From the IMG/VR virus record IMGVR_UViG_3300011008_000142: a stretch of 55,810 nt of DNA. One strand, given 5' to 3'. A model generated the notes under the pieces. It was not told the origin of the DNA. It ran no database searches and was given only the letters and a program-made list of their open reading frames with translations. Positions within the stretch are counted from its first letter, which is position 1. Every line of letters starts with the position of its first letter. Both the position numbers and the translations under genes were made by a program. This document shows, piece by piece, positions 1 to 46,689 of the stretch. This DNA comes from a virus.

Positions 1-99
1 TCTGCCCTCTGATAGTATCATACTTCGGAGGAAATAACAACAGTGAAAGAGCCTACTCCACGAAAACTAAAATCCGGGATGTACCGTGTCCAGCTGCGT
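1..99. repeat. Terminal overlap copy 1 (identical to 55712..55810)
   Basis: Read directly: tctgccctctgatag...ccagctgcgt occurs at both ends. It runs into the integrase start, which fits assembly closure of a circle rather than a physical terminal repeat. Confidence 0.9.
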
Positions 100-1116
100 T
101 TGGGCGGGGAAAGTATATCGATCACCAGGGCGGAAAAGCAAGACTGCATTTCAGAAGCGCGGGAGATCAAAGCTGCATACCTCGCCGGTAAAAGGCCAAA
201 GGTTACTGGCAAGGAGCTGACGCTGGACCAGGCCATGGATATCTACATTGAGGACCATAAGAACGTCCTGTCGCCGACCACGATCCGCGGCTACGGTATC
301 ATCCGCCGAAACCGCTTCCAGTCGGTCATCAATAAGCGGCTGAAGGATATCAAGGACTGGCAAGCCATCGTAAATCAAGAAGCGAAGAAGGATGTTTCCC
401 CGAAGACCCTGGCAAACGCTTGGCGCTTCACCAGCTCCGTCATCCGCTATCAGAATATCACCCCGCCCAAGGTTGTGCTGCCGCAGATCAACAGCAGCAC
501 CAGGGAATGGCTCGACTATGACGAGATAAAAACCTTCATGGCCACGATCAAGGGGACATACTACGAAATGCCATGTCTGCTCGCCCTGTGTTCACTTCGG
601 CGCTCGGAGATCTTCGGCCTACACTGGGAGGACGTCGATCTGAAGCATGAGGTCATCCGGGTGCATCAGACGATGGTCCCCGATGAAGATCACCATTATG
701 TTCTCCGGGAGGCAACAAAGAACGCGACCTCTCGCCGCACCGTGCCCATCATGATCCCGCGGCTCCTGGAGCTGATGAAAGAGAAGTATGGCGCCGGTCT
801 GATATTCCGTACCAATCCCGAGGGATGCAACCGACGCATCGGCGATCTGGCCGAGGACGCCGGCCTTCCTCGCGTCAGCCTGCACGGGCTCCGGCACAGC
901 TTCGCATCCCTCGCATATCACGTCGGTATGGACGAGCGCACATGCATGGAGCTGGGCGGCTGGTCAAATCCTGCGACCATGCAGAAGATCTACACTCACG
1001 TTGCCGCAAAGGACAAGGAAAAGCACCAGAATGCAATGAAGAAATTCTTCGAGGACGCCGAGGCTCCGGCCCCAAAACCAGAAGAAAATGCTCACAAAAA
1101 TGCTCACAAGGAGTGA
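43..1116 (+). CDS. int: Tyrosine site-specific integrase
   Basis: GTG start about 10 nt after GGAGG. C-terminal catalytic signature LHGLRHSFASLAY...GGWSNPATMQKIYTHV (R..HxxR..Y). Confidence 0.92.
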   Translation: MKEPTPRKLKSGMYRVQLRLGGESISITRAEKQDCISEAREIKAAYLAGKRPKVTGKELTLDQAMDIYIEDHKNVLSPTTIRGYGIIRRNRFQSVINKRLKDIKDWQAIVNQEAKKDVSPKTLANAWRFTSSVIRYQNITPPKVVLPQINSSTREWLDYDEIKTFMATIKGTYYEMPCLLALCSLRRSEIFGLHWEDVDLKHEVIRVHQTMVPDEDHHYVLREATKNATSRRTVPIMIPRLLELMKEKYGAGLIFRTNPEGCNRRIGDLAEDAGLPRVSLHGLRHSFASLAYHVGMDERTCMELGGWSNPATMQKIYTHVAAKDKEKHQNAMKKFFEDAEAPAPKPEENAHKNAHKE

Positions 1117-2431: not shown

Positions 2432-2563
2432 ATGTACAGCAAAGAAGAGATGAAAGTCCTAAACAAGATCGCGAAGGACTGGCACGGATGCAAGTTCAAC
2501 GACCTCGACCACGAGGAACAGGACATTATCTACTGCTACGCCGAAGACGACGGACTCCTCTAA
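2432..2563 (+). CDS. Hypothetical small protein (43 aa, MYSKEEMKVLNKIAKDWHGC...)
   Basis: Not in the ORF track because it is under 60 aa. ATG 7 nt after AGGAGGA; fills the gap between neighbouring genes. Confidence 0.5.
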   Translation: MYSKEEMKVLNKIAKDWHGCKFNDLDHEEQDIIYCYAEDDGLL

Positions 2564-2639
2564 GCCGAAACGCCCGCGAGGGCGTCGAGCGGAACCGCCC
2601 CACCGCTCCTGATGATGGCAGGGCAGAAAGGCAACCAAG

Positions 2640-7631: not shown

Positions 7632-7788
7632 CGTCGGTTTCCTCCTCAAACAGATCTTCGATGTCTACATCGTTCAGCACGCCGAGAAACTCGATCATTT
7701 CCATGGCCTTGTCCAGTGCGATCTTCAAACGTCTGTTCTTCCGGCGTTCTTCCTTCAACGCCTGCCTATCGTTCTTGATGATGTCCAT
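7618..7788 (-). CDS. Hypothetical small acidic protein (56 aa)
   Basis: ATG after GGAGGCATTTGT. Its stop overlaps the xkdX start (ATGACGAACAGTGA). Confidence 0.45.
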   Translation of the reverse strand: MDIIKNDRQALKEERRKNRRLKIALDKAMEMIEFLGVLNDVDIEDLFEEETDDDEQ

Positions 7789-8905
7789 ACAAATGCCTCC
7801 TTACTGGCTTGTACTGTGGTTTTTGTCGAAATGTGATTGTGTAAAACCGGTCCATATCCCGAATGAGCCCGCCGCCTGTCGCATATGACGCCTGGGATAT
7901 GAACGCCTGATAGTGATTATGCACCGCGTCCATGGTAATCTCGCCGCGATCCAGAGCGTCCTTCATCCCGGCGAGCGTCTGCCGCTCATAGCGAGGAACA
8001 CTGGGATGTAGTTTGATGATCACCTTTCCTGTGCCTGTCAGGACAAAACGTTTCCGTAGGAAGTAGAAGCCGTCTTTCAACCGGAAGATACCGGTCTTGT
8101 CTGTGCAAGTAAAGCCTCGTTCTTCCAGCATTGCCACTATGGTGTCCCGCGCCCGCTCGCACACAGACCGGTCTTTGTCCACGACCTGAAAATCATCCAT
8201 GTACCGCTGGGAATGATGGCAGAAGGTTTTCAACTCGTGGTCGATCCGGTTGAGAAGCGCCACCTGGTGAAGCTGGTTGATCTGGCTGCCGAGGCCTGTC
8301 CCCCGCGATCCGAATGGATCGGCGGCGATGACATCTTCCGGCCTCTGGTCTTTAGCGCTTACGGCGATCTCCCGCAGATATGGCAGGAATCGGTCATCCG
8401 TGATAATGGACTCATCCATCATCACGATCTCCCTGTGCGGCGTAGATGGGAAGTACTTCTTCACGTCCAGGTGGATGCCGTAACCCTCGTTCGTACCGTC
8501 CTCCATGTAAACGCTGTGCAGCATGGCGACGGTGCGGCGTATCGCCTGCTCGGTGCCCTTTCCCTTCTGGCAGGCGCTGTTGTCGTAAACGAGGCTCCTT
8601 GTCAGGTCGTCGTATACGCCGTTATTACACATAGCCCGCTGCCAAACGCGATCCTTGAACCACGGAGCTATGGCCTCGCGGCGCTTCGGGCGGTAAATCT
8701 GGACACGGTTTCCCGGACGCAGCCTGTACCGACCTTTGAGCAGGTCGGTTTTCAGCGTGTATGCTTTCATGAGGCTGTGCATATACCAGTCGGTCGGGCC
8801 GTCCTTATAGCTCACACCGCTCCGGCACTCCCGGATAGCGCGGACGAGTTCGTTCATGCTGATAGCATCGTCATACTGAGCCATGCGCTGATCATCGCCT
8901 CCCAT
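7766..8905 (-). CDS. DGR reverse transcriptase
   Basis: RT motifs including YMDD (QRYMDDFQVV) and the DGR-typical GLGSQINQL (xGxxxSQ) motif. Lies directly downstream of TR. Confidence 0.9.
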   Translation of the reverse strand: MGGDDQRMAQYDDAISMNELVRAIRECRSGVSYKDGPTDWYMHSLMKAYTLKTDLLKGRYRLRPGNRVQIYRPKRREAIAPWFKDRVWQRAMCNNGVYDDLTRSLVYDNSACQKGKGTEQAIRRTVAMLHSVYMEDGTNEGYGIHLDVKKYFPSTPHREIVMMDESIITDDRFLPYLREIAVSAKDQRPEDVIAADPFGSRGTGLGSQINQLHQVALLNRIDHELKTFCHHSQRYMDDFQVVDKDRSVCERARDTIVAMLEERGFTCTDKTGIFRLKDGFYFLRKRFVLTGTGKVIIKLHPSVPRYERQTLAGMKDALDRGEITMDAVHNHYQAFISQASYATGGGLIRDMDRFYTITFRQKPQYKPVRRHLYGHHQER

Positions 8906-32023: not shown

Positions 32024-33997
32024 TCACCAGCTGTCAAATTGTTTTGATAACCCGCCGCTTCTGCGCTGTGCAGGTTTGCTTTTCGGCACTATTACGGAGT
32101 TGCCGTTTGAAGCCTGTCCCCGTGCGGTCTTGAGCCGACGGTCGATCTCGTCCAGGTTCGGCGCCAGGGCTTTAAATGCGGCAATGGCATAGTTCCGGCA
32201 GTCGAGGCGCTCATTTCGCTCATGCCCGGGGATCTTCACCCATGACCACGGCTGCTTCTTCTCTGCGTTGTATACCAAGTGCTCAGACAGGAGCCCTTTG
32301 AAATATGCCGTGCCATAATCGTCTCGCTTTGGGAAGTGGCAGTATTTCGAGCCCGGTTTCTTCACTCGTAGGTTGTCCATGATGATCTGCTTCCCGGCAT
32401 CCACACCGAGCTGATATTGCCAGCACATACCGATCGCCACACCACCGACCACGATCTTGATCTTCTTCGGTGGCGACGTATACGGGCGATCCCGCCCGGA
32501 GAATCCCTTTATGCAGAACACCTTTTTGCCGAGCCGTTCCCGGCAGCGGCGGCGAACCTCCTGGGTGAAATGGCCGCCCTCGTCAACAAACGTCAGGCTC
32601 ATACGCAGCCCCATGCCGTCCTTGAAGGTGTATACATGGTCAATGAGCTCGTCAAGTTCGTCCCATACTTCGGCAATATCTGGGCGGCCGAGGATAATCC
32701 CAGCCTTTATGCCCCATGTTTCACCGAAATGACCGTGACCAACAATCTCATATTCCAGTCGGTCATCCTGTGTATCGACGCCGCATGTCAGACAGAGAAC
32801 ACCATCCGGCAGCTCGGCAGGGTATTCCTCGCGCCGCGCCATGAGGCTGTCCTCGTCCTCGATGTCGCCGCGGTCCTCCCACAGTTCCCCGAAGCGCGTA
32901 TTATAAACGACCTGCAGAGCCTTGGAATCACCCAGAGCATACAGATATTCGAGAATCGTAGATTCCCATGAAGCCCATGGACTCACGAAGGAGTTTAGCC
33001 AGAAGGAACGGACGCCTCGTTTGTATGCATCTGGATTGTCTGCGATCCACTTTGCGGGTTGCTTTTTTATCTGCGCTTCTGTAGATACGCTGGCGCACTC
33101 CGGGCAGATGTAATAAATATCCGAGACCTCGTACTGCTTTTCGTGCTGCACAATGCTCTCGGTGGATGTAAAGCGTATATCTGAAAAGTGAATGTCATGA
33201 TAACCGCCACAGTGAGGACACTTCACGCACCAGCGCTCCATCGTCCCCTCTGCGTAGGAGCGGGCTATCCTGCTGACGTTTTTTACGGTCGGAGTGGAAA
33301 CCTCTACCGCTTTTGAATTGTGGAAGGTTATTTGCCGCGCCGTCGCCAGTTTCCACGGGTCGCCCTCGTTACCGGCACTCAGAGCCCAGCGGTCGCGTTC
33401 GTCTCCGAATACATATCGGCACGGTGTCGAAGCGAGGTCGGAAGGCGTCTGCGAACCGCAGATGATCAGCATTCCGCCAGGGAACGTCTTTGAAAGCATC
33501 GTGTTTCCGCTGTCGCGGCTTTTCGCCTTGGAAACGCGCGTCCGCAAAACCGGCGAATCCTGAATCATCGTTCCGACGCGCAGTCTGGAAAACCTCTTGG
33601 CATCGTCAATGTCGGGATGCACATACAGGATGTTGCCGGGATCTTGATGGATGATATAGCCGATGCAGTTCAGCTCAAATTCTGATTTTCCAACCTGAGA
33701 CGCCGCAACCATTACGATACGACGAACCTTTGGATCCCTGAACGCATCCATTGGCTCTTTCAGGTATGGCGTTCTGGATGTGCGCCATGGTCCGGACTCA
33801 GCATTGCCCCTCGGAAGGCGCCGGTATTTATCCGCCCACTCGGAAACGGTAAGGTTCTCCGGCGGCTTCATTCCGGCAACTGCCTTTGCTATGGCAGCGT
33901 TCAGTTTCGCCGCGCTGCGTCTCGCCTGCGCTCGCCGGGCCTCTTCCGCCTTTGCGGCGTCAGATTCCTTCGTCATCCCGGCTTCCCCCTTCTCCAT
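32024..33997 (-). CDS. terL: Terminase large subunit, lambda GpA family
   Basis: WADKYRRLP...GPWRTSRTPYLKEPMDAF...VMVAASQVGKSE (Walker A). Zn-ribbon CPHCGG/CPEC. The start could instead be the internal MTKESD. Confidence 0.9.
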   Translation of the reverse strand: MEKGEAGMTKESDAAKAEEARRAQARRSAAKLNAAIAKAVAGMKPPENLTVSEWADKYRRLPRGNAESGPWRTSRTPYLKEPMDAFRDPKVRRIVMVAASQVGKSEFELNCIGYIIHQDPGNILYVHPDIDDAKRFSRLRVGTMIQDSPVLRTRVSKAKSRDSGNTMLSKTFPGGMLIICGSQTPSDLASTPCRYVFGDERDRWALSAGNEGDPWKLATARQITFHNSKAVEVSTPTVKNVSRIARSYAEGTMERWCVKCPHCGGYHDIHFSDIRFTSTESIVQHEKQYEVSDIYYICPECASVSTEAQIKKQPAKWIADNPDAYKRGVRSFWLNSFVSPWASWESTILEYLYALGDSKALQVVYNTRFGELWEDRGDIEDEDSLMARREEYPAELPDGVLCLTCGVDTQDDRLEYEIVGHGHFGETWGIKAGIILGRPDIAEVWDELDELIDHVYTFKDGMGLRMSLTFVDEGGHFTQEVRRRCRERLGKKVFCIKGFSGRDRPYTSPPKKIKIVVGGVAIGMCWQYQLGVDAGKQIIMDNLRVKKPGSKYCHFPKRDDYGTAYFKGLLSEHLVYNAEKKQPWSWVKIPGHERNERLDCRNYAIAAFKALAPNLDEIDRRLKTARGQASNGNSVIVPKSKPAQRRSGGLSKQFDSW

Positions 33998-34526
33998 ATT
34001 CCCAGTTCATCCGCGCTCGGACACGCTCTTCATATCGTTCAGGGTCATATTCGTAATGGGACAGTTCCTCCATGATAAGGAATACCTGTTCCCGGACGAT
34101 TTCCTCTGCCTCGGCGGAGCTTTGTGCCGCCTGTGCATCCACGGCCACGCGGCCAGGTAATGCCGTAAGCATCCCGCGGATAGAGTAAATCAGATCTTCG
34201 GTCATGGCTGCGACATCCTCTGAGCGGTGCATTTTCCCCTGTAGTTCTGCGGCTTCCAGCTTCGCAATCTCCGCCTTCGATGCTTTAAGGGTGATTTCGG
34301 CTTTTCTCCGCGCCTTTTCCAGTTTCGTATCTTCCTCACTTGGCATCTGCAGGCGAAGGAACCTTTGGTAGCTATGTACACAAGCCGCAAGTGGATATTC
34401 GTTCTTCCCGCTTGGATGCATGATGCCATCCTCCACCATCTGCCGAATACGCTTGGAGGACAGCCCCAACACCACCGCCAGTTCGGAGAGCGTGACGGTC
34501 GTTTCCTGCGTGATCTTTTCAGCCAT
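33960..34526 (-). CDS. terS: Terminase small subunit (HTH N-domain)
   Basis: N-terminal winged HTH TVTLSELAVVLGLSSKRIRQMVEDG. Overlaps the terL start. Preceded by repeated palindromic sites. Confidence 0.7.
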   Translation of the reverse strand: MAEKITQETTVTLSELAVVLGLSSKRIRQMVEDGIMHPSGKNEYPLAACVHSYQRFLRLQMPSEEDTKLEKARRKAEITLKASKAEIAKLEAAELQGKMHRSEDVAAMTEDLIYSIRGMLTALPGRVAVDAQAAQSSAEAEEIVREQVFLIMEELSHYEYDPERYEERVRARMNWEYGEGGSRDDEGI

Positions 34527-34535
34527 TTTTGCTCC

Positions 34536-34640
34536 TTTTCGTCAACTGAGAGGCTGTTTCGTACAACTCAGTTGCGTTTTCATACAACTAATTGAGGTTT
34601 CATACAACTGAGTTGAACTTTTTCCTTCAACTCTGTACTG
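34536..34640. repeat. Five phased repeats (about 21-bp spacing) containing the palindrome CAACTnAGTTG; cosB/R-site-like
   Basis: CAACT cores at 34543, 34564, 34585, 34605 and 34628. Units TTTC(G/A)TACAACTNAGTTG. Immediately upstream of terS. Confidence 0.6.
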
Positions 34641-34803
34641 AAACGACCGAATTTTGCATGGTAACTAGACGCTTTTCGGGGTCAGCGTGCCCGCTCGGCT
34701 TGGGGGGTGCCTCTCACAGTACCTTTTTCGGTCGAAATCGTCCTCGACCCGCGAACACCGTTTTCCTACCATGGAGTTTCCGCGCGCTCTGTTCTGCGAC
34801 AAG

Positions 34804-34878
34804 GCGCTTTGTTTTGTTTCTTTCTTTCGGCAAAAGAGTTCTTTTCTTTTCTCGATCAAAAGAAACAAAACGAAACGC
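34804..34878. repeat. Long imperfect inverted repeat (20-bp arms, 2 mismatches, 35-nt A/T-rich spacer)
   Basis: GCGCTTTGTTTTGTTTCTTT ... AAAGAAACAAAACGAAACGC. Confidence 0.7.
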
Positions 34879-35082
34879 TTTGTTCTGTAGCACACCCCGC
34901 CCCCACCTTTATTTCGGCCCATCTCTTTCTGATAATTGTTTCGAGAGGCAATAGTCTTTGCCAGTGCCGGGCTTGCCGTGCACCCATCGCATGGGTACCG
35001 CACCTGGTATGTACACCGTATGCGCCACACCGTGTTTTTCGCGGGGTATCGTCTCACGCGCCGCCCTTGCCCGCCTGCGCCC

Positions 35083-35113
35083 CACCACCGGGCGCGGGGG
35101 CGCCCCGGTGGTG
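35083..35113. other. GC-rich near-perfect hairpin/palindrome
   Basis: CACCACCGGGCGC-gggg-GCGCCCCGGTGGTG. Lies about 80 nt downstream of the ParB-like gene stop. Confidence 0.5.
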
Positions 35114-35192
35114 TAGAGACATAGGCAAAGGCAGAAAGCGAACAGAGGCGCATTAAACGGCTCTGCGCGCTTCCTGCCATAAAGGAGAAATG

Positions 35193-35717
35193 CTACAGGT
35201 GCGTATATATGACGGCATTGCTGTATCGGTCATGTCCCCGTGTCATAAGATCGAGGAACTCCTGCCGCGTGAATCCTGAAAGCCTGAAGATCTCTTCGGG
35301 CTTCATCCCCAGTTGCTTTCCGATCTCCGCCACGGTCTTGCCTTCGTCCATGAGCCGCTTGACGATGGCCTTCATTGGCTCGAGCAGATGGGTACCGCGG
35401 GCGCGATTGTGGGTGATGGTGCCGTACACGTCCGCACTCTCGTCGCCGGCATGATCCACGATCACCACGGGCACCTTGCCGCCCAGCATGGTATGCAGCG
35501 GCTCGCGTCCGGCGACGGTCCACCGGTGGAAGCCGTCGATGATCGTATAGTCAGGCCGGACCACGATAGGGAGCGTCCAGCCGTTCGTGAGTATGGATTG
35601 GGTCAGGAGCTTCAGGTTGTCCTCACTGACCTTGTTCGGGTTGTAGTCATTGGCACGCAGCTGCTCCCGATCCACCCATTGCAGGGAGGCCAGCGGAGCG
35701 AATGGATCCATGGCCAT
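35193..35717 (-). CDS. IbrB-like ParB/sulfiredoxin-domain protein with C-terminal HTH
   Basis: LRANDYNPNKV...ILTNGWTLPIVVRPDYTIIDGFHRW (ParB-N/Srx core), then KTVAEIGKQLGMKPEEI (HTH). Confidence 0.75.
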   Translation of the reverse strand: MAMDPFAPLASLQWVDREQLRANDYNPNKVSEDNLKLLTQSILTNGWTLPIVVRPDYTIIDGFHRWTVAGREPLHTMLGGKVPVVIVDHAGDESADVYGTITHNRARGTHLLEPMKAIVKRLMDEGKTVAEIGKQLGMKPEEIFRLSGFTRQEFLDLMTRGHDRYSNAVIYTHL

Positions 35718-36850
35718 TACACCGCCCCCTTCCGGGCGCGCTTGCCGTAGTCCTCATAGATATCCGTCCAGAGGATGCGCATGACGCGCTTCTTAGGATC
35801 GCCGTACAGGATGCCCTCGTACATGGTCTTATAGTGCTTCTGTGTGGCGATGCCGTAGGTCTTCAGGAACAGGTTGCGGTAGCCGGGCAGCGCAGCCTTG
35901 GTGTCCGGGGCGATGTTGAAATCCTCCGTCCGCCGGAACAGGAGGTCCTTGCAGAGCTCCCGATAGTCCTTCTTCTCCTGCTCGGCTTCCAGCTCCCGAC
36001 GCTTCTGGCTCGATCTCCGGAACATTTCACTGTCCCAGTACAGAAGCACCAGGTAGGCGTTCGGCTCCCGGCGCTCGATGCGCTCCCACAGCTCATGGTC
36101 CGTCTCGGCTACCCAGCGAAGCCCCTGGGTGCTCATGTCCCCGAAGAAACAGCAGAGCCGGAGCTGGTTCTTTTTTACGCCGGCCTCATAGAGCCGCATG
36201 TATATGTCGGGAAATTCAAGGCCGCGCTCTTTGATGTAGAGCCAGACATCGGCATCCTTCCAGTCGTAGATGGGATAGAACTTCCCGCCTTTGAGCGAGG
36301 TCATATCCGCTTTGGATATGCACTGGAGCCGTGTCAGGCTCTCGGCGGTCCGGAGGCCGATCATCTGTATGCCGTCCCCGAAGGCACGCTCGCAGAAGGT
36401 CTGATAGTTCATTTCGCCCGGGTAATGCAGGTACGGGCTCGACATGATGGCGAAGGGCGGCGGCTGCCGCATCCAGATATCCTCCTTGCCCGGCTCCCAG
36501 GTGATCCAGCTCTCGGAGGCAGCAAGGCTGTCGATCACGCTCACCTGCTTCACCGGCAGGCACAGCCAGAGGAATTTCGCGCCGACGGAGAGGAATTTCT
36601 TTCGCCACCGCAGCGCGGCGTCCACCATGGAGGGGTACAGCCCTTCCTCGTCCACGAACGTGACCGTGAGCTGGGCGCTGTCGATCTCCCCGGCTCGGAT
36701 CAGGTCATAGGTGATGCTGGACATCACGAGGCTGTCCTTCCCGCAGGAGAACGAGAGGTACACCTTGAAGCCGTTTCGGAACACGTTCCGGATGCGCGTC
36801 TTCGTCGCCTCCAGCACGTTCACCCGGCTCTCTATGCGTTTGGTAGGCAT
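35717..36850 (-). CDS. PAPS-reductase-family PP-loop protein, IbrA-like with long C-terminal extension
   Basis: Start at MPTKRIE after GGAGGT. PP-loop YLSFSCGKDSLV...IGLRTAES...YPIYDWKDADVW. About 150-aa helical C-terminal region. Confidence 0.8.
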   Translation of the reverse strand: MPTKRIESRVNVLEATKTRIRNVFRNGFKVYLSFSCGKDSLVMSSITYDLIRAGEIDSAQLTVTFVDEEGLYPSMVDAALRWRKKFLSVGAKFLWLCLPVKQVSVIDSLAASESWITWEPGKEDIWMRQPPPFAIMSSPYLHYPGEMNYQTFCERAFGDGIQMIGLRTAESLTRLQCISKADMTSLKGGKFYPIYDWKDADVWLYIKERGLEFPDIYMRLYEAGVKKNQLRLCCFFGDMSTQGLRWVAETDHELWERIERREPNAYLVLLYWDSEMFRRSSQKRRELEAEQEKKDYRELCKDLLFRRTEDFNIAPDTKAALPGYRNLFLKTYGIATQKHYKTMYEGILYGDPKKRVMRILWTDIYEDYGKRARKGAV

Positions 36851-37491
36851 ATCGTACCTCCGCAATGGGGGCAGGTGATCGTTCTGGCTCCCTCGGGCGT
36901 CTCTGCGGCCTCTCCCGGCGCCGCAGCGTCCGGGGCCATATCCGAACCCGTCCCGCCCGGCGCGTCCGCCGAGGCCGCTGACGCGGCCTCCATGGGCGCG
37001 GCGCCGGGGACGTGTTCCTCCCGCGTCCGCCGGTTCATGGCGTCGACCTCTTCCTGGGAATATACGCCGTAGTTCTCCACGAGGTCCGTCGCCTCCGCTG
37101 CGGAGGCGTTGAGCATTTCCAGCAGATCGTCATCCCAGCCGGGGATGTCGATATCGCCGTCCAGCTCCTTCAGGATCTCGTCGAACATATCCATGTCCGT
37201 GATCCCCAGCTCGTACACCCGGTTATCCGAGAGCATGAGCTTTTTCTTCATGGCTGGGGTCAGCCCCGTCATGACGCGGCACTCGGCGGAATCGCGGCCC
37301 ATCTGCATCAGCGCGGCATACAGACCGTTCCCGGCAATGATCTCGCCGGTCTCGTCGATCAGGATGGGCTTCGTCTGGCCGAACATTTCCACGGAGCGGA
37401 CGTATTCGGCAAGCTGCTTGTCTGTGTGCCGGCGGACGTTCTTCTCCGCCGGGCGAAGCTCGGAGAGCTTCTTGGTGACGATCTTCATCAT
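36832..37491 (-). CDS. ParB N-terminal-domain protein with C-terminal zinc ribbon
   Basis: LSELRPAEKNVRRHTDKQLAEYVRSVEMFGQTKPILIDETGEIIAGNG (ParB-N), Ala/Glu linker, CPHCGGTIC. Confidence 0.75.
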   Translation of the reverse strand: MMKIVTKKLSELRPAEKNVRRHTDKQLAEYVRSVEMFGQTKPILIDETGEIIAGNGLYAALMQMGRDSAECRVMTGLTPAMKKKLMLSDNRVYELGITDMDMFDEILKELDGDIDIPGWDDDLLEMLNASAAEATDLVENYGVYSQEEVDAMNRRTREEHVPGAAPMEAASAASADAPGGTGSDMAPDAAAPGEAAETPEGARTITCPHCGGTICLPNA

Positions 37492-38093
37492 GCCGCAGCC
37501 CTCCGCTTCTCACGGAGCCGCCACAGCAGCGCGAACAGGATTGCGCCGGCGACGAAGTAGATGCGCACCGAGGCCATAAGGGTCCACATCCCCATCACGC
37601 CGAGAGGGATCAGGAATTGCCAGCCGAGGATCAGGCCGCCGTTGACGGCCAAGCCGACCTTCTTCCCAAAGGCGATGTAGATGCTGTACATGGAGCTGGA
37701 GAGCGTCGACGTGCCGATCAGCGTTATCAAAATGGCCTTGAGCGTGTTCAGAAGCGGTGTAAACTGCACCCAGGCCAGCAGAAACGTTATCAGCATGTAG
37801 ATGCCGAAGTACGCGCCGCCCAGGGTGAAAGCCTCCTGCACGTCGATCTTATGGGCGCCGTCCTCATTCTCGTCGTTATAGTTCAGGATCTCGAAGAAGT
37901 ACGGATAGGTGAAGGGACCGGGCAGGAGCAGTATCGCTTTCCAGATGCCCGTTTTCAGGGCGCCGGGACCGGCGATGGCGGGGATCTCATTGAAACTGTA
38001 CTGGGAATGGATCGCCGCGGCGACGGTCACGCCGTAGGCCAGCAGATAGACGACGATCCAGCCGAAGCCGTCCGTCAGAACGTTTCGGATCAT
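37488..38093 (-). CDS. Polytopic membrane protein, C-terminal part (frame-disrupted with 37987..38403)
   Basis: Several TM segments. The open frame continues upstream of the listed Met as ...FLLILLKYG. Confidence 0.55.
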   Translation of the reverse strand: MIRNVLTDGFGWIVVYLLAYGVTVAAAIHSQYSFNEIPAIAGPGALKTGIWKAILLLPGPFTYPYFFEILNYNDENEDGAHKIDVQEAFTLGGAYFGIYMLITFLLAWVQFTPLLNTLKAILITLIGTSTLSSSMYSIYIAFGKKVGLAVNGGLILGWQFLIPLGVMGMWTLMASVRIYFVAGAILFALLWRLREKRRAAA

Positions 38094-38403
38094 GCCGTAT
38101 TTCAGCAGGATCAGCAGAAAGGGAGAGCCAGGCCTGGAACACGCACATGATGGCGCAGATCCATTTCATGATCTTCGTGCCGAATACCTCCCGCACCTTC
38201 GGGATCCTCATGGCGGCCCACCCGAACAGAATGCAGGCCAGGACATTCCCCAGCACCCAGATGGCCGAGGGAACGAAGCCGTAGGTCTGCGTCATCGTGA
38301 CGCCGTTCATCAGACTTCCGATGCCGGCCCACGTCGCGCAGATGGACAGGGCGTAATAGATCTTCGGATCTTCCTTGAATCTCGATTTGATTTTCGTAAG
38401 CAT
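37987..38403 (-). CDS. Polytopic membrane protein, N-terminal part (frame-disrupted)
   Basis: RBS AAAAGGAGGA. Three TM segments, then the sequence turns Arg-rich nonsense after ...VFQAWLS at the CCCTTT run (38117..38122). Confidence 0.55.
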   Translation of the reverse strand: MLTKIKSRFKEDPKIYYALSICATWAGIGSLMNGVTMTQTYGFVPSAIWVLGNVLACILFGWAAMRIPKVREVFGTKIMKWICAIMCVFQAWLSLSADPAEIRHDPKRSDGRLRLDRRLSAGLRRDRRRGDPFPVQFQ

Positions 38404-38705: not shown

Positions 38706-39095
38706 CTATGGCTGGAAGTAATTGTATACGGACCGGTATGCGCTGTCCTCCGTGAAGCTCCCCCCCAGCATATAGGCGACCTCTTTCCATTGGAGCGCGT
38801 GGATATATCGCAGCCGTATGATCAGTCGTATCGTCGGCGGCACAGTTTTCAGCCAGGCTTCAATGCTTTTCTGCTGCTCACCGATCTCCGCCTCCAGTTC
38901 CTCGATGTGCGCCTTATAGTCTGCGATCTCCACAGCGAATATCTCCACCTTCGCAACTACGCCTGGAGTGTGAGGCATACCTGTGAGGACCTGCGCCCCG
39001 GGCACGGCGCGGCTCTCCAAGGACATGAGGATCTCTCTGTCCTTTACGAGCTCCTGCCTCAGCGCCAGATGCTGGTTTAATTCCTCTAAGGTCAT
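38706..39095 (-). CDS. Sigma-70 region-4-like / phage late-transcription regulator candidate
   Basis: C-terminal IRLIIRLRYIHALQWKEVAYMLGGSFTEDSAYRSVY resembles a sigma region-4 HTH (RinA/ArpU/DUF1492-type regulators). N-terminal coiled coil. Confidence 0.5.
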   Translation of the reverse strand: MTLEELNQHLALRQELVKDREILMSLESRAVPGAQVLTGMPHTPGVVAKVEIFAVEIADYKAHIEELEAEIGEQQKSIEAWLKTVPPTIRLIIRLRYIHALQWKEVAYMLGGSFTEDSAYRSVYNYFQP

Positions 39096-43842: not shown

Positions 43843-43999
43843 TCTTCTGCATGCCCTCCATTACGATCTGCTCCGGCACGAACTCCTTTACGTCGTACAC
43901 CCGGATGCCGCCCAGGTGTTCAAGCGCCTGGGCGATCGCCTCCTTGGTCCCCTGCTGCATGCCGGGCGGACAGTCGGCGTAGATCGTGATGATCAGCAT
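43808..43999 (-). CDS. Hypothetical small protein (63 aa)
   Basis: ORF overlapping both neighbours by a few codons. Confidence 0.4.
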   Translation of the reverse strand: MLIITIYADCPPGMQQGTKEAIAQALEHLGGIRVYDVKEFVPEQIVMEGMQKNEVHHPSHIQR

Positions 44000-45384
44000 T
44001 CGGGCTCCTCACCGGCGTGGAAGCAGGGATGGTCCCCGCAGAGCCATTCAGCCTCTTCCGTGCTGGGCTCATAGCCCATCTTCGTAAGCCAGCGATACAG
44101 AAGCTCTGCCTGCCCCTTCCGCTCCCAGCGGGGAAATTCGCTCCTGCTTCCGACGCCGGTCAGATTCAGCCTGATGCCGTCGCCGAAGATATACTGGACG
44201 ACCTTCGGAAGATCCTTATCCTGGACCTCGGTGATCGCCTCCCCCACCTTGACGGAGAAGTCGCGCTTCCAGGCCTCCGCCGTATCCAAACCCATCATAT
44301 TCCGGATATCCCGACCGCCGCTGTCGGTCACATAGCACAGGTGCCGGATCAAGGCTGCGTTCACCATGCCGTACATCATCTCGAAACGGTCGGCGTTGGT
44401 CAGTTTGGTGATCCCGTCCACAAAGGCCGTCCGCAGCTCATAGAATTCCTTGGCCTTCGCGTCCACCAGCTCCCAGGCCTCCCGGACCGCCTTCTCTCTG
44501 GCGCGCTGCTCCGGGGATTTCTCTTCCCGCGGCGCTTTGGCCTTTTTCTTCTTCAGATACAGGGTGCCGTAGCTGATGTAGTAGAAGATCGGCTCTTCCA
44601 CAGTCTCCGGGAGCGTTTCGCCGGGATCTCCAAGCTTCGTGATTTCGATACGGCTGGCACCGGGCCAGTCCTCGTATTTCCCGGACCATTTATCGCTGTC
44701 CTTCAGCTCCTTGGCCTTGACCGACTTCAGCCAGGCCTCCACCGTCGGAAGGTTGCGGGAGATCTTCTGCGCCCGGAGGGCTCCGTTCACGGCCATGTCG
44801 AAATCCCTGGTGCCGATTTTTCCCAGAACCTCGTTCCGGGCCTCCAGATCCTCGATCTCCGCCAGGCGGTCAAAATCACCCAGAGTGAGCTGCCGTTCCT
44901 CGTCAGCGACCACCGCCCGGAGCTTGTCCTTGTCCAGCTCGGCCATCTTCAGCCGCCGCCGCACCGTGGTGGTGGAGAAGCCCGTCCGCTCCACGATATC
45001 CGCCGGGGTATCTCCCAGGTCAATCATCATCTGGAACCCCTGGGCCTCGTCGAAGGCAGTCATGTTCTCCCGGACGATGTTCTCCGTCATCATGGCTCGG
45101 AGCTGCTGGATGCCGACCATGGATCGGATGACGCAGGGGACCGTTTCCAGCCCCGCCAGCTTTGCCGCTGCGTGACGGCGGTGACCGGCCACAATGGTGT
45201 AGGTGCCCGTGGGATCGCCGGTAAGTTCTCCAACATCCGTCACGACGATCAGGGGTTCCAACACCCCCATCTGCTTCATGGATGACGCCAGCTCCGCCAC
45301 GTCGCCCACGCCAGCCCGTGGGTTTTTCGGATTGCTTCGCAATGCAGTCACGGGGATCTGAATAATCAGTTCGTTTTCGCTCAT
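43993..45384 (-). CDS. ParB N-terminal-domain protein (463 aa)
   Basis: IPVTALRSNPKNPR...MKQMGVLEPLIV...YTIVAGHRRHAAAKLAGLETVPCVI (ParB box). Confidence 0.8.
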   Translation of the reverse strand: MSENELIIQIPVTALRSNPKNPRAGVGDVAELASSMKQMGVLEPLIVVTDVGELTGDPTGTYTIVAGHRRHAAAKLAGLETVPCVIRSMVGIQQLRAMMTENIVRENMTAFDEAQGFQMMIDLGDTPADIVERTGFSTTTVRRRLKMAELDKDKLRAVVADEERQLTLGDFDRLAEIEDLEARNEVLGKIGTRDFDMAVNGALRAQKISRNLPTVEAWLKSVKAKELKDSDKWSGKYEDWPGASRIEITKLGDPGETLPETVEEPIFYYISYGTLYLKKKKAKAPREEKSPEQRAREKAVREAWELVDAKAKEFYELRTAFVDGITKLTNADRFEMMYGMVNAALIRHLCYVTDSGGRDIRNMMGLDTAEAWKRDFSVKVGEAITEVQDKDLPKVVQYIFGDGIRLNLTGVGSRSEFPRWERKGQAELLYRWLTKMGYEPSTEEAEWLCGDHPCFHAGEEPEC

Positions 45385-45777: not shown

Positions 45778-46689
45778 TCAGAAAAATGTCAGCTGCCCGG
45801 TCGCGGTCTCCGCGTACACAGGCATCGGTGTTTCCTCTGGATTCTCGGTGATCTCCGGCGGCGCGGGCAGCTCCAGGGGCGAGGGCTCGGTAACCGCCTC
45901 TGTCGGCCTCTCCGCGGCCCCCAGCGCGGCCATCTGGTTTATCGCTATATCCAGCATCGCCCACTGCCTCCGGTGATACCACACGTCGCGGAAAAACATA
46001 GGGGTGTACCAGATGGTGCCGTTGTCCACAGGAAGCAGGCACTTTCTGTCATGCGACGTGAGCGGTTCCGTGATGCTGTTCCCGATCTTCACATAACCGG
46101 GAGCTCCTATGAGACTGAGCTGCAGGTAGCACATGAGGCCTACCGTATAATCAATATCCTGCGCCGTGAACAGCACGTCCGTCTGGTAGTTCACCTTCTG
46201 TGCCAGGCACTCGTTGGCAAACGCCACGAGGAGCGCCCCGGCGCCGCAGGCGCAGTCGTTCACGGATATGAACCCGTCCCGCTCCACACGGCCCTTGATG
46301 TCCGGTTCCGTGATCTTCGCCATGAGCTTGCATACATGGTACGGGGTGAAGAACTGCCCCGCGTGGTCATTGCTCAGCTCCAGGTTCATGAACAGGTCGC
46401 CGAGGAAGTCCTGATCCGGGTTTACATCGATTGCCACGATCATCTGCGCCAGCATGTCGGAAAAGACGTTCATCTCCGCGCTGTTGTACCGTTTGGCAAG
46501 GGTCATATAGGTCTTTTCCCGCTCCTCGGCGTGGGCCAGATCCACCGTGTTCGATATGGCAATGGCGGACATGGATATGAAATCGCTCCACACCTGCCAG
46601 CGGTTGTGCCGGTCGCAGAGAGCGGAGAAGGTCTTGACCAGCTCCTTCTGCCGCTCGCCGCGGACCATCCGCACCTGCTTCCGGCTCAT
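45778..46689 (-). CDS. N6-DNA-methyltransferase-like SAM-binding protein with no recognisable (D/N)PP(Y/F) motif
   Basis: GQFFTPYHVCKLMAKI and VNDCACGAGALLVAF (HsdM-like motifs X/I). No NPPF/DPPY found by eye downstream. Confidence 0.55.
   Translation of the reverse strand: MSRKQVRMVRGERQKELVKTFSALCDRHNRWQVWSDFISMSAIAISNTVDLAHAEEREKTYMTLAKRYNSAEMNVFSDMLAQMIVAIDVNPDQDFLGDLFMNLELSNDHAGQFFTPYHVCKLMAKITEPDIKGRVERDGFISVNDCACGAGALLVAFANECLAQKVNYQTDVLFTAQDIDYTVGLMCYLQLSLIGAPGYVKIGNSITEPLTSHDRKCLLPVDNGTIWYTPMFFRDVWYHRRQWAMLDIAINQMAALGAAERPTEAVTEPSPLELPAPPEITENPEETPMPVYAETATGQLTFF

Follow-up and report, generated by a model that had tools for sequence, protein, structure and literature searches.

A ParB-like, IbrA-like and IbrB-like gene trio in a fixed slot before phage terminase genes: a candidate DNA-modifying unit

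The closest described relatives of the system studied here are IbrA and IbrB of Escherichia coli, found in the ECOR-9 island and in Escherichia phage PhiR5_2, where a PP-loop enzyme of the PAPS_reduct family is followed by an overlapping gene for a ParB-like protein. To our knowledge, no biochemistry has been known for this pair for more than 20 years. We analysed a related gene set at positions 35,193 to 37,491 of the virus record IMGVR_UViG_3300011008_000142, a stretch of 55,810 nucleotides (nt) that we call the window. Three genes, here called the trio, encode a degenerate ParB-like protein (ParB1), an IbrA-like PP-loop enzyme and an IbrB-like protein that combines a ParB/sulfiredoxin (Srx) fold with a helix-turn-helix (HTH). 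We show that the trio is an obligate three-gene unit in a fixed slot before the terminase genes, and we consider, with a probability of roughly 40%, that its products form a nucleoside triphosphate (NTP)-gated, DNA-bound adenylating complex which modifies the phage DNA before packaging.

The resemblance to the E. coli pair, which an earlier note on this DNA had pointed out for the last two genes, was confirmed by BLASTP against the E. coli phage proteins: the enzyme is 28% identical to IbrA over 320 amino acids (aa; 2e-29), the IbrB-like protein is 40% identical to IbrB over 158 aa (2e-32), and the motifs NPN, DGFHR and HNRARG are common to both IbrB proteins. However, ParB1 has no counterpart beside the E. 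coli pair, which does not adjoin terminase genes either. Furthermore, E. coli IbrA clearly matches DUF3440 (4.7e-33) and four canonical IbrA proteins score between 1e-33 and 1e-55, whereas the window enzyme has no match to this Pfam family at E<=0.01, a family for which the earlier note had suggested a profile search. The BLASTP alignment of the enzyme with IbrA does, however, extend through IbrA residues 226-312, which is the start of DUF3440.

The window is not unique, since gp36-38 of Faecalibacterium phage FP_Taranis, the nearest cultured relative of the window phage, are already deposited with IbrA/IbrB labels. Around gp35-gp38 this phage shows the same gene order (RinA-like, membrane protein, ParB, IbrA, IbrB, terS/terL), its enzyme is 72.6% identical to that of the window, and its IbrA/IbrB stretch was the only DNA-level match found with a 20-kb query. 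FP_Taranis differs in two small open reading frames (ORFs) before terS and in an intact membrane gene, and its genes are known by annotation.

Other described systems share parts of this arrangement. DndC, SspD and BrxP are enzymes of the PAPS reductase family that act on DNA (PMC12914056), DndC has a ParB-superfamily partner in DndB of the Dnd system (PMC10853773), and a phage PAPS-Dam fusion overcomes Dnd defence (bioRxiv 10.1101/2021.05.05.442762). The window trio differs from them in lacking a conserved Cys dyad or Fe-S ligand in the enzyme as well as a nearby DndD/SspC/BrxC ATPase, DndE or desulfurase, the neighbours of the enzyme being just ParB1, the IbrB-like gene, the membrane protein and the terminase; therefore, phosphorothioation as it is known cannot be its chemistry. 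The thymine dioxygenase system 5mYOX176/ParB176 is alike by its description, because a small phage ParB-fold protein is required there for the action of the enzyme on double-stranded DNA (PMC13229309), although the partner enzyme is an iron/2-oxoglutarate dioxygenase and not a PP-loop ATPase. The ParB-N/methyltransferase fusions of phrog_498 have an N-terminal domain homologous to ParB1, and a fusion of this kind occupies the same slot in two related phages, but in ParB1 the methyltransferase domain is missing and the GHGR/DGxHR-type motif has been lost. Finally, CysD of the GTP-regulated ATP sulfurylase CysD/CysN is an adenylyl-transferring subunit of PAPS_reduct fold driven by an NTPase, and it was among our best structural matches (TM-score 0.58 on the target). 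In the trio, however, a protein of ParB/Srx fold takes the place of the translational-type GTPase, the genomic surroundings contain no sulfur pathway, and the scores are far under the cut-off of the family. For the mechanism proposed below, we take DndB/DndC, BrxP, the PAPS-Dam fusion and the ParB-dependent thymine dioxygenase as precedents, and CysD driven by CysN as an analogy in enzymology.

Regarding the distribution of the trio, relatives of the enzyme formed 2188 clusters of 90% identity at E<=1e-5 among the candidates collected, and 1072 clusters of 50% identity at E<=1e-3 in an exhaustive scan. A pattern scan found a relative encoded on at least 478 contigs of IMG/VR and at least 466 contigs from species-representative genomes (GTDB). 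Synteny was counted in the best 80 loci of each of these two sets (160 in total, 40-75% identity), and the terminase of phage PJN03 (L002) was used as a further search seed. The complete trio was present in all the 137 loci with both flanks available (72/72 from IMG/VR and 65/65 from the genomes). A terminase gene lay directly downstream on the same strand in 118 of 122 loci (58/58 and 60/64 respectively), so the co-occurrence with terminase genes raised in the earlier note holds far beyond the window; the median gap between the IbrB stop codon and the terminase was 356 nt in the IMG/VR set. Four or more families are represented among these terminases, with a distinct type of small subunit in each: GpA, Terminase_6N/Terminase_3, TerL_ATPase/TerL_nuclease and the phrog_2/phrog_5902 type. 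In the Bacteroidota-type loci all three genes are kept, with the order permuted to ParB1-IbrB-enzyme. Host labels derive mostly from metagenome-assembled genomes (MAGs), where mis-binned viral contigs are possible. At two loci the large terminase gene is apparently split into separate ORFs (L064, 9315-11559; L071, 8583-9065 onwards), possibly as the result of a frameshift or of an inserted element.

Distant IbrA/IbrB pairs (27-30% identity, DUF3440-positive) are located elsewhere and occur without ParB1. They follow the lysis genes in Streptococcus thermophilus phages, and in S. equinus phages the distant IbrA homologue is paired with a helicase. Mycobacteriophage Gaia encodes its IbrA homologue in the replication module, with a ParB partner fused to an ectoine-synthase-like cupin, and in Pseudomonas phage Amjad_SA the homologue adjoins a SNF2/DEAD helicase with Zn ribbons. 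A Heimdallarchaeal virus with IbrA/IbrB homologues, whose nearest relatives come from Firmicutes phages, has also been reported (PMC8813620).

We found no functional study of the trio in the full-text literature searched, nor any description there of the obligate third partner, of its degenerate motif and CPxCG tail, or of the near-absolute placement before the terminase. The main text of a 2025 survey of ParB folds mentions neither a PAPS reductase nor IbrB (PMC12704722).

The central gene of the trio had been read as a PP-loop protein of the PAPS reductase family, and the profile searches agreed with this (PAPS_reduct PF01507, 2.3e-9, 37.9 bits for a cut-off of 22.5; phrog_2302, 2.2e-83). 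When the enzyme was aligned with 44 homologues, down to 23% identity, the residues S35, K38, S40, D67, E69, G165, E170, S171, R174, D201, W203, R231 and R261 were invariant; accordingly, the PP-loop SxGKDS, the D67/E69 pair and the block G165-x-R167-x-x-E170-S171-x-x-R174 are invariant or nearly so. This pattern of conservation indicates that the enzyme is under catalytic constraint. All the PP-loop catalytic residues are kept, but no cysteine is conserved across the 44 homologues, and the enzyme is therefore neither a CysH-type enzyme of sulfur assimilation nor a DndC-type enzyme of phosphorothioation. The CysH model NF002537 gave only 20.8 bits for a cut-off of 154, the best NCBIfam match was CysD with 33.8 bits for a cut-off of 195, and the PADLOC models of DndC and BrxP reached E-values of 5e-4 to 8e-4 with no passing domain.

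The AlphaFold (AF2) model of the enzyme (pLDDT 81) shows a Rossmann-like core followed by a C-terminal domain of helices. With Foldseek it matched only generic PP-loop folds of the PDB (NcsA, CysH, LarE, CysD, TilS and FAD synthase) at TM-scores of at most 0.58, and these matches were too generic to narrow down the substrate. A profile search of the PDB sequences returned nothing under an E-value of 1e-4 and hence no close relative with a solved structure. We also considered long homologues as possible Rosetta-stone fusions, but P0102, P0116, P0121, P0125, P0210, P0170 and P0123 appear to be chimeric assemblies that include tail, portal, SSF or MBL sequence and were discarded.

The description of the third gene as a ParB/Srx-like protein with an HTH also stood, with matches to Pfam ParB_N (3.8e-7) and phrog_2159 (6.3e-69) and an alignment with Spo0J from the PDB (E = 0.004) that spans the HTH region. 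The motifs NPN, DGFHR and HNRARG of the nucleotide-binding ParB/Srx fold are invariant in its alignment. This protein is unusually conserved, being 61-62% identical to copies from Bacteroidota-binned contigs and from a Methanolobus MAG. Nevertheless, neither it nor ParB1 is a canonical partition protein of the ParABS type: the IbrB-like protein, of only 174 aa, scores 28 bits against 58.45 for TIGR00180 and carries DGFHR in place of GERR, whereas ParB1 has GNGL at this motif. No ParA was seen among the neighbours of the trio.

The first gene fitted its earlier description, a ParB-N domain with a Zn ribbon, only in part. ParB1 matches phrog_620 (5.9e-49) and, by hhalign, aligns in register with the IbrB profile (E = 4.7e-5), but it does not reach the threshold for Pfam ParB_N (E = 0.075). 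It also matches the ParB-methyltransferase family phrog_498 (8.7e-30) and the PADLOC model MTase_II (3.9e-18), although it covers only the N-terminal part of both, around the first 135-170 positions, and no methyltransferase domain was found in ParB1, so that it is not itself a ParB-N/methyltransferase fusion. In the profile-profile alignment its GNGL falls exactly onto the GFHR of IbrB and thus replaces the nucleotide-binding motif DGxHR, which means that the His-Arg dyad has been lost; GNGL was present in 133 of the 154 ParB1 homologues. All 154 have a CxxC within their last 40 residues, and in the copies examined this is a CPxCG knuckle after a non-conserved acidic/Pro/Ala linker (Ala/Pro/Glu-rich in the window). 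Judged by this single knuckle, the tail is a half zinc ribbon and not a full one.

Between the trio and terS there is a cos-like element composed of GAAAAAGGTACTGTGA, around 20 variable nt and GCGGGCACGCTGACCCCGAAAAG. Across phages its second half reads GCGGGCxCGxCGACCCCRAAA, and the element is strongly conserved where the genes are merely 62-75% identical. It was found upstream of TerL in 89 of 122 GpA-type loci and in none of the 60 that have another terminase; GpA loci that lack the trio can carry it as well. Therefore a parS site was ruled out, and the block is probably the cos site, with the cohesive ends perhaps located in its GC-rich second half. If so, the trio would be the last coding unit before cos, in line with the earlier note, which had placed it just before the cos/terS region; terS and a GpA-type terL indeed follow downstream. 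We found no repeat or palindrome conserved together with the trio. Just upstream of the terS ATG, AGTTGTAYGAAA is directly repeated three to four times at a spacing of 20-21 nt. These repeats were rejected as loading sites of the IbrB-like protein because no other trio locus conserves them; they may serve as promoter elements or, like cosB, in the binding of terS. An imperfect inverted repeat with 39-nt arms (79% complementary) also lies between the stop codon of the IbrB-like gene and the cos-like element. As RNA it would fold with -37.8 kcal/mol (z = -5.4 against shuffles), and it could serve as a terminator or as an accessory site of cos.

A related GpA TerL was found in 38 phages, of which 31 have the trio and seven lack it. 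In two of these seven (L172 and L173) the slot before terS holds a gene for a fusion of ParB_N with an N6_N4 DNA methylase, and in a third (L235) a C5 DNA methylase and an amidoligase, so that DNA methyltransferases occupy the slot of three of the seven, two of them as ParB-methyltransferase fusions. Another (L188, 3504-4952, protein P0210) has a sodium:solute symporter between the sigma-like gene and terS, two loci have a SNF2 helicase and then a DUF1492/RinA-like gene directly before terS, and one has a replication-associated protein and unannotated ORFs. These contents suggest that the space from the late regulator to cos is a slot for cargo, often filled by DNA-modifying genes. The symporter of L188 echoes the membrane protein that precedes ParB1 in the trio phages.

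The trio would be produced by the phage a short time ahead of packaging, and its most likely job is to place a covalent mark, anti-restriction or epigenetic, on the replicated phage DNA. The IbrB-like protein, with its intact ParB/Srx pocket and its HTH, would bind DNA and NTP and recruit or activate the enzyme as a licensing subunit. The IbrA-like enzyme would then adenylate a group of the substrate with ATP, releasing pyrophosphate, and a nucleophile would displace AMP from the adenylated substrate. ParB1, whose nucleotide-binding dyad is gone, would have no catalytic role and act as a scaffold or adaptor; its flexible CPxCG tail could provide a shared Zn site or carry a thiol or persulfide into the active site. 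We infer DNA as the substrate, the formation of a complex, the order of the steps and the chemistry. We lean to a DNA-directed enzyme because of the invariant catalytic residues, the homology of ParB1 to the N-terminal domain of ParB-methyltransferases, the methyltransferases in the slot, and the helicase and cupin-ParB partners of the distant relatives.

Several points weigh against a DNA-modifying complex. Known DNA chemistry does not fit an enzyme with no conserved cysteine or Fe-S ligands, no cysteine desulfurase or DndD/SspC/BrxC-type ATPase was found among the neighbours of the trio, and the evidence from slot replacement comes from seven loci only. PP-loop enzymes act just as often on tRNA or on small molecules, and a position just before the late/packaging operon is also typical of late activators. 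Furthermore, we know of no phage carrying the trio for which a modification has been shown. According to others, Sandt et al. reportedly found in 2002 that IbrAB activates prophage genes, and this is said to be the sole experimental phenotype.

The position and this phenotype lead to the rival that we take most seriously, while still judging it rather improbable: the trio would be a co-activator of late or prophage genes, with the IbrB-like protein loading near the late promoter and the enzyme helping to relieve silencing or to activate the packaging/structural operon, in the manner of VirB or KorB. The trio stands directly upstream of terS/terL whatever the terminase family, the classic position of a late activator, and ParB-fold clamps such as KorB can regulate transcription (PMC13229309). 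However, a RinA/sigma-like activator is already encoded just upstream, and in two phages without the trio (L219 and L221) it abuts terS alone. Such strict conservation of the ATP-pyrophosphatase residues would be unexpected in a pure transcription factor, no DNA site is conserved with the trio while the intergenic block follows the type of terminase, and the distant pairs in replication modules or after lysis genes are away from late promoters. A substrate other than DNA is a still weaker candidate and, in our view, quite unlikely: the trio might modify RNA or tRNA, the nucleotide pool or a signal, for example by re-modifying tRNA against anticodon nucleases or by consuming a nucleotide of defence signalling, with the ParB/Srx proteins as NTP-using enzymes and not as DNA binders. 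Among the nearest structures are indeed NcsA and TilS, which act on tRNA, as well as LarE and two adenylyltransferases of small molecules, FAD synthase and CysD; the ParB/Srx folds include kinases of small substrates, SerK and Srx (PMC12704722), and PAPS reductases have been found in Aca-regulated anti-defence operons (PMC13551039). But the HTH of the IbrB-like protein and its alignment with the DNA-binding Spo0J, the relationship of ParB1 to domains of DNA methyltransferases and the DNA helicases beside the distant relatives all speak against this, and a tRNA-binding domain (THUMP or PUA) was not detected.

The adjacency to the terminase genes could also mean that the trio assists packaging or partition, its ParB-like nucleases or clamps helping the terminase to recognise or cut concatemers or segregating a plasmid prophage, all the more as some ParB-like domains nick DNA (PMC5512222). 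We regard this as very unlikely. A mechanistic partnership with one packaging enzyme is hard to reconcile with a trio that precedes cos-type and other terminases alike, in at least four unrelated families, and with a DNA element that tracks the terminase and not the trio. Moreover, the phage has an integrase and a separate ParB of canonical type elsewhere, no ParA was seen beside the trio, and the PP-loop enzyme would be left unexplained. As for an auxiliary metabolic gene (AMG), a CysH-type PAPS reductase boosting the sulfur assimilation of the host, it is what the Pfam and PHROG family names say and how such genes have been read (PMC13369170; bioRxiv 10.64898/2026.02.18.706556), yet we give it next to no chance. 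The CysH and CysD scores are a small fraction of their cut-offs, the catalytic C-terminal Cys of CysH is absent, the PP-loop is the canonical ATP-type SxGKDS, and the gene invariably comes together with a ParB-fold gene on either side.

The earlier note had proposed a DNA or nucleotide modification coupled to packaging, or else late-gene activation, and our results support its reading partly: they lean to a DNA-directed enzyme, but with terminases of so many families a mechanistic coupling to packaging is unsupported. Returning to DNA modification, a more specific version seems doubtful to us although worth stating, namely that the trio is a new DNA-modification machine: an NTP switch in the DNA-bound IbrB-like protein would clear the cysteine-free PP-loop enzyme to adenylate the DNA, either at a backbone phosphate or at a base carbonyl, and the CPxCG tail of ParB1 or a non-sulfur nucleophile would complete an uncatalogued modification. 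A 7-deazaguanine pathway (a QueC-like PP-loop enzyme with a DpdB-like ParB and a transporter) was considered and dropped, because the scans of most ORFs of the window gave no tRNA-guanine transglycosylase (TGT)/DpdA and no family of the queuosine pathway.

A cysteine-free PP-loop ATPase between two ParB-fold genes, in a fixed slot before the terminase, weakens the metabolic reading and is more suggestive of a function directed at DNA. This is worth taking into account in virome studies, where phage 'PAPS reductases' are still counted as auxiliary genes of sulfur metabolism (PMC13369170; bioRxiv 10.64898/2026.02.18.706556). If the trio were a DNA-modification machine, genes for DNA modification or anti-defence would account for most phage 'PAPS reductase AMGs' of this type. 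The trio is widespread, in hundreds of gut and rumen phages and possibly in archaeal viruses, and it is carried by the cultivable phage FP_Taranis, so that its function is directly testable.

The trio comes from a temperate phage or prophage with a P2-like tail, of Faecalibacterium/Oscillospiraceae type, which also encodes an integrase and the tail genes Baseplate_J, GpU and gp25. The coordinates of the features are collected in Table 1. The three ORFs of the earlier note are all present at the coordinates given there, on the minus strand. The locus runs from the RinA/sigma-like regulator through the membrane gene, ParB1, the enzyme and the IbrB-like gene to the cos-like site, terS and terL, and 666 non-coding bases separate the IbrB-like gene from terS. 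This gap is crossed by a 171-aa Arg-rich ORF that overlaps both the hairpin and the cos-like element; it matches no Pfam family and was taken as spurious.

Table 1. Positions of the trio, its neighbours and other features of the window
Feature	Position	Strand	Remarks
ParB1	36832..37491	-	219 aa, degenerate ParB-N-like, C-terminal CPHCG knuckle
IbrA-like PP-loop ATP pyrophosphatase, PAPS_reduct family	35717..36850	-	377 aa, SFSCGKDS, helical C-terminal domain
IbrB-like ParB/Srx-fold protein with HTH	35193..35717	-	174 aa; NPN, DGFHR and HNRARG intact
Multi-pass membrane protein gene, broken	37488..38403	-	two frames: 37987-38403 and 37488-38093
RinA/sigma-70 region-4-like regulator	38706..39095	-	phrog_36 2.2e-13; Sigma70_r4 6e-4 and TIGR02937 7e-5, both under cut-off
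Arg-rich ORF, taken as spurious	34665-35180	-	171 aa
Imperfect inverted repeat	34799-34883		39-nt arms
cos-like DNA element	34672..34729	-	between trio and terS
AGTTGTAYGAAA direct repeats	34551-34609		three to four copies
Terminase small subunit terS	33960..34526	-	phrog_57 1.6e-28
Terminase large subunit terL, lambda GpA type	32024..33997	-	GpA_ATPase 1.3e-77, GpA_nuclease 1.8e-72
Integrase	43-1116		
Hammerhead_II ribozyme match (Rfam)	2563-2627	+	37.6 bits, gathering score 37
Probable reverse transcriptase	7766-8905	-	RVT_1 match in ORF set; YMDD in 379-aa ORF
ParB of more canonical type	43993-45384	-	463 aa, ParB_N and HTH_ParB
N6_Mtase-domain protein	45778-46689	-	303 aa

Translational coupling within the trio, noticed before, was confirmed. 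The end of ParB1 and the ATG of the enzyme at 36850 overlap by 19 nt, with GGAGG preceding that ATG, and the stop codon of the enzyme overlaps the start codon of the IbrB-like gene as TAATG. The ORF list starts the enzyme at an upstream TTG (36865), whereas the public gene calls have the ATG form of 377 aa that is used here. In addition, the membrane gene and ParB1 overlap as ATGA, which makes four translationally coupled genes and not three.

Regarding the two genes that had been described upstream of the trio, the sigma-like regulator was confirmed, and its FP_Taranis homologue carries the annotation RinA-like activator, but the membrane gene turned out to be frameshifted in the window. Compared by tblastn with an intact homologue of 355 aa (L026), it has lost around 25 codons and changes frame near 38100-38120; it could be a true pseudogene or the result of an assembly error. 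It has no Pfam family at threshold, and its homologues sit before ParB1 at many loci. An Rfam search of the trio region gave no match.

Elsewhere in the window there is a third ParB, of more canonical type than the two in the trio, and two genes from it a protein with an N6_Mtase domain, which makes a second pairing of ParB and DNA modification in this phage. Finally, a Hammerhead_II ribozyme match just above its gathering score and a probable reverse transcriptase lie near each other, and this stretch may be a diversity-generating retroelement region.

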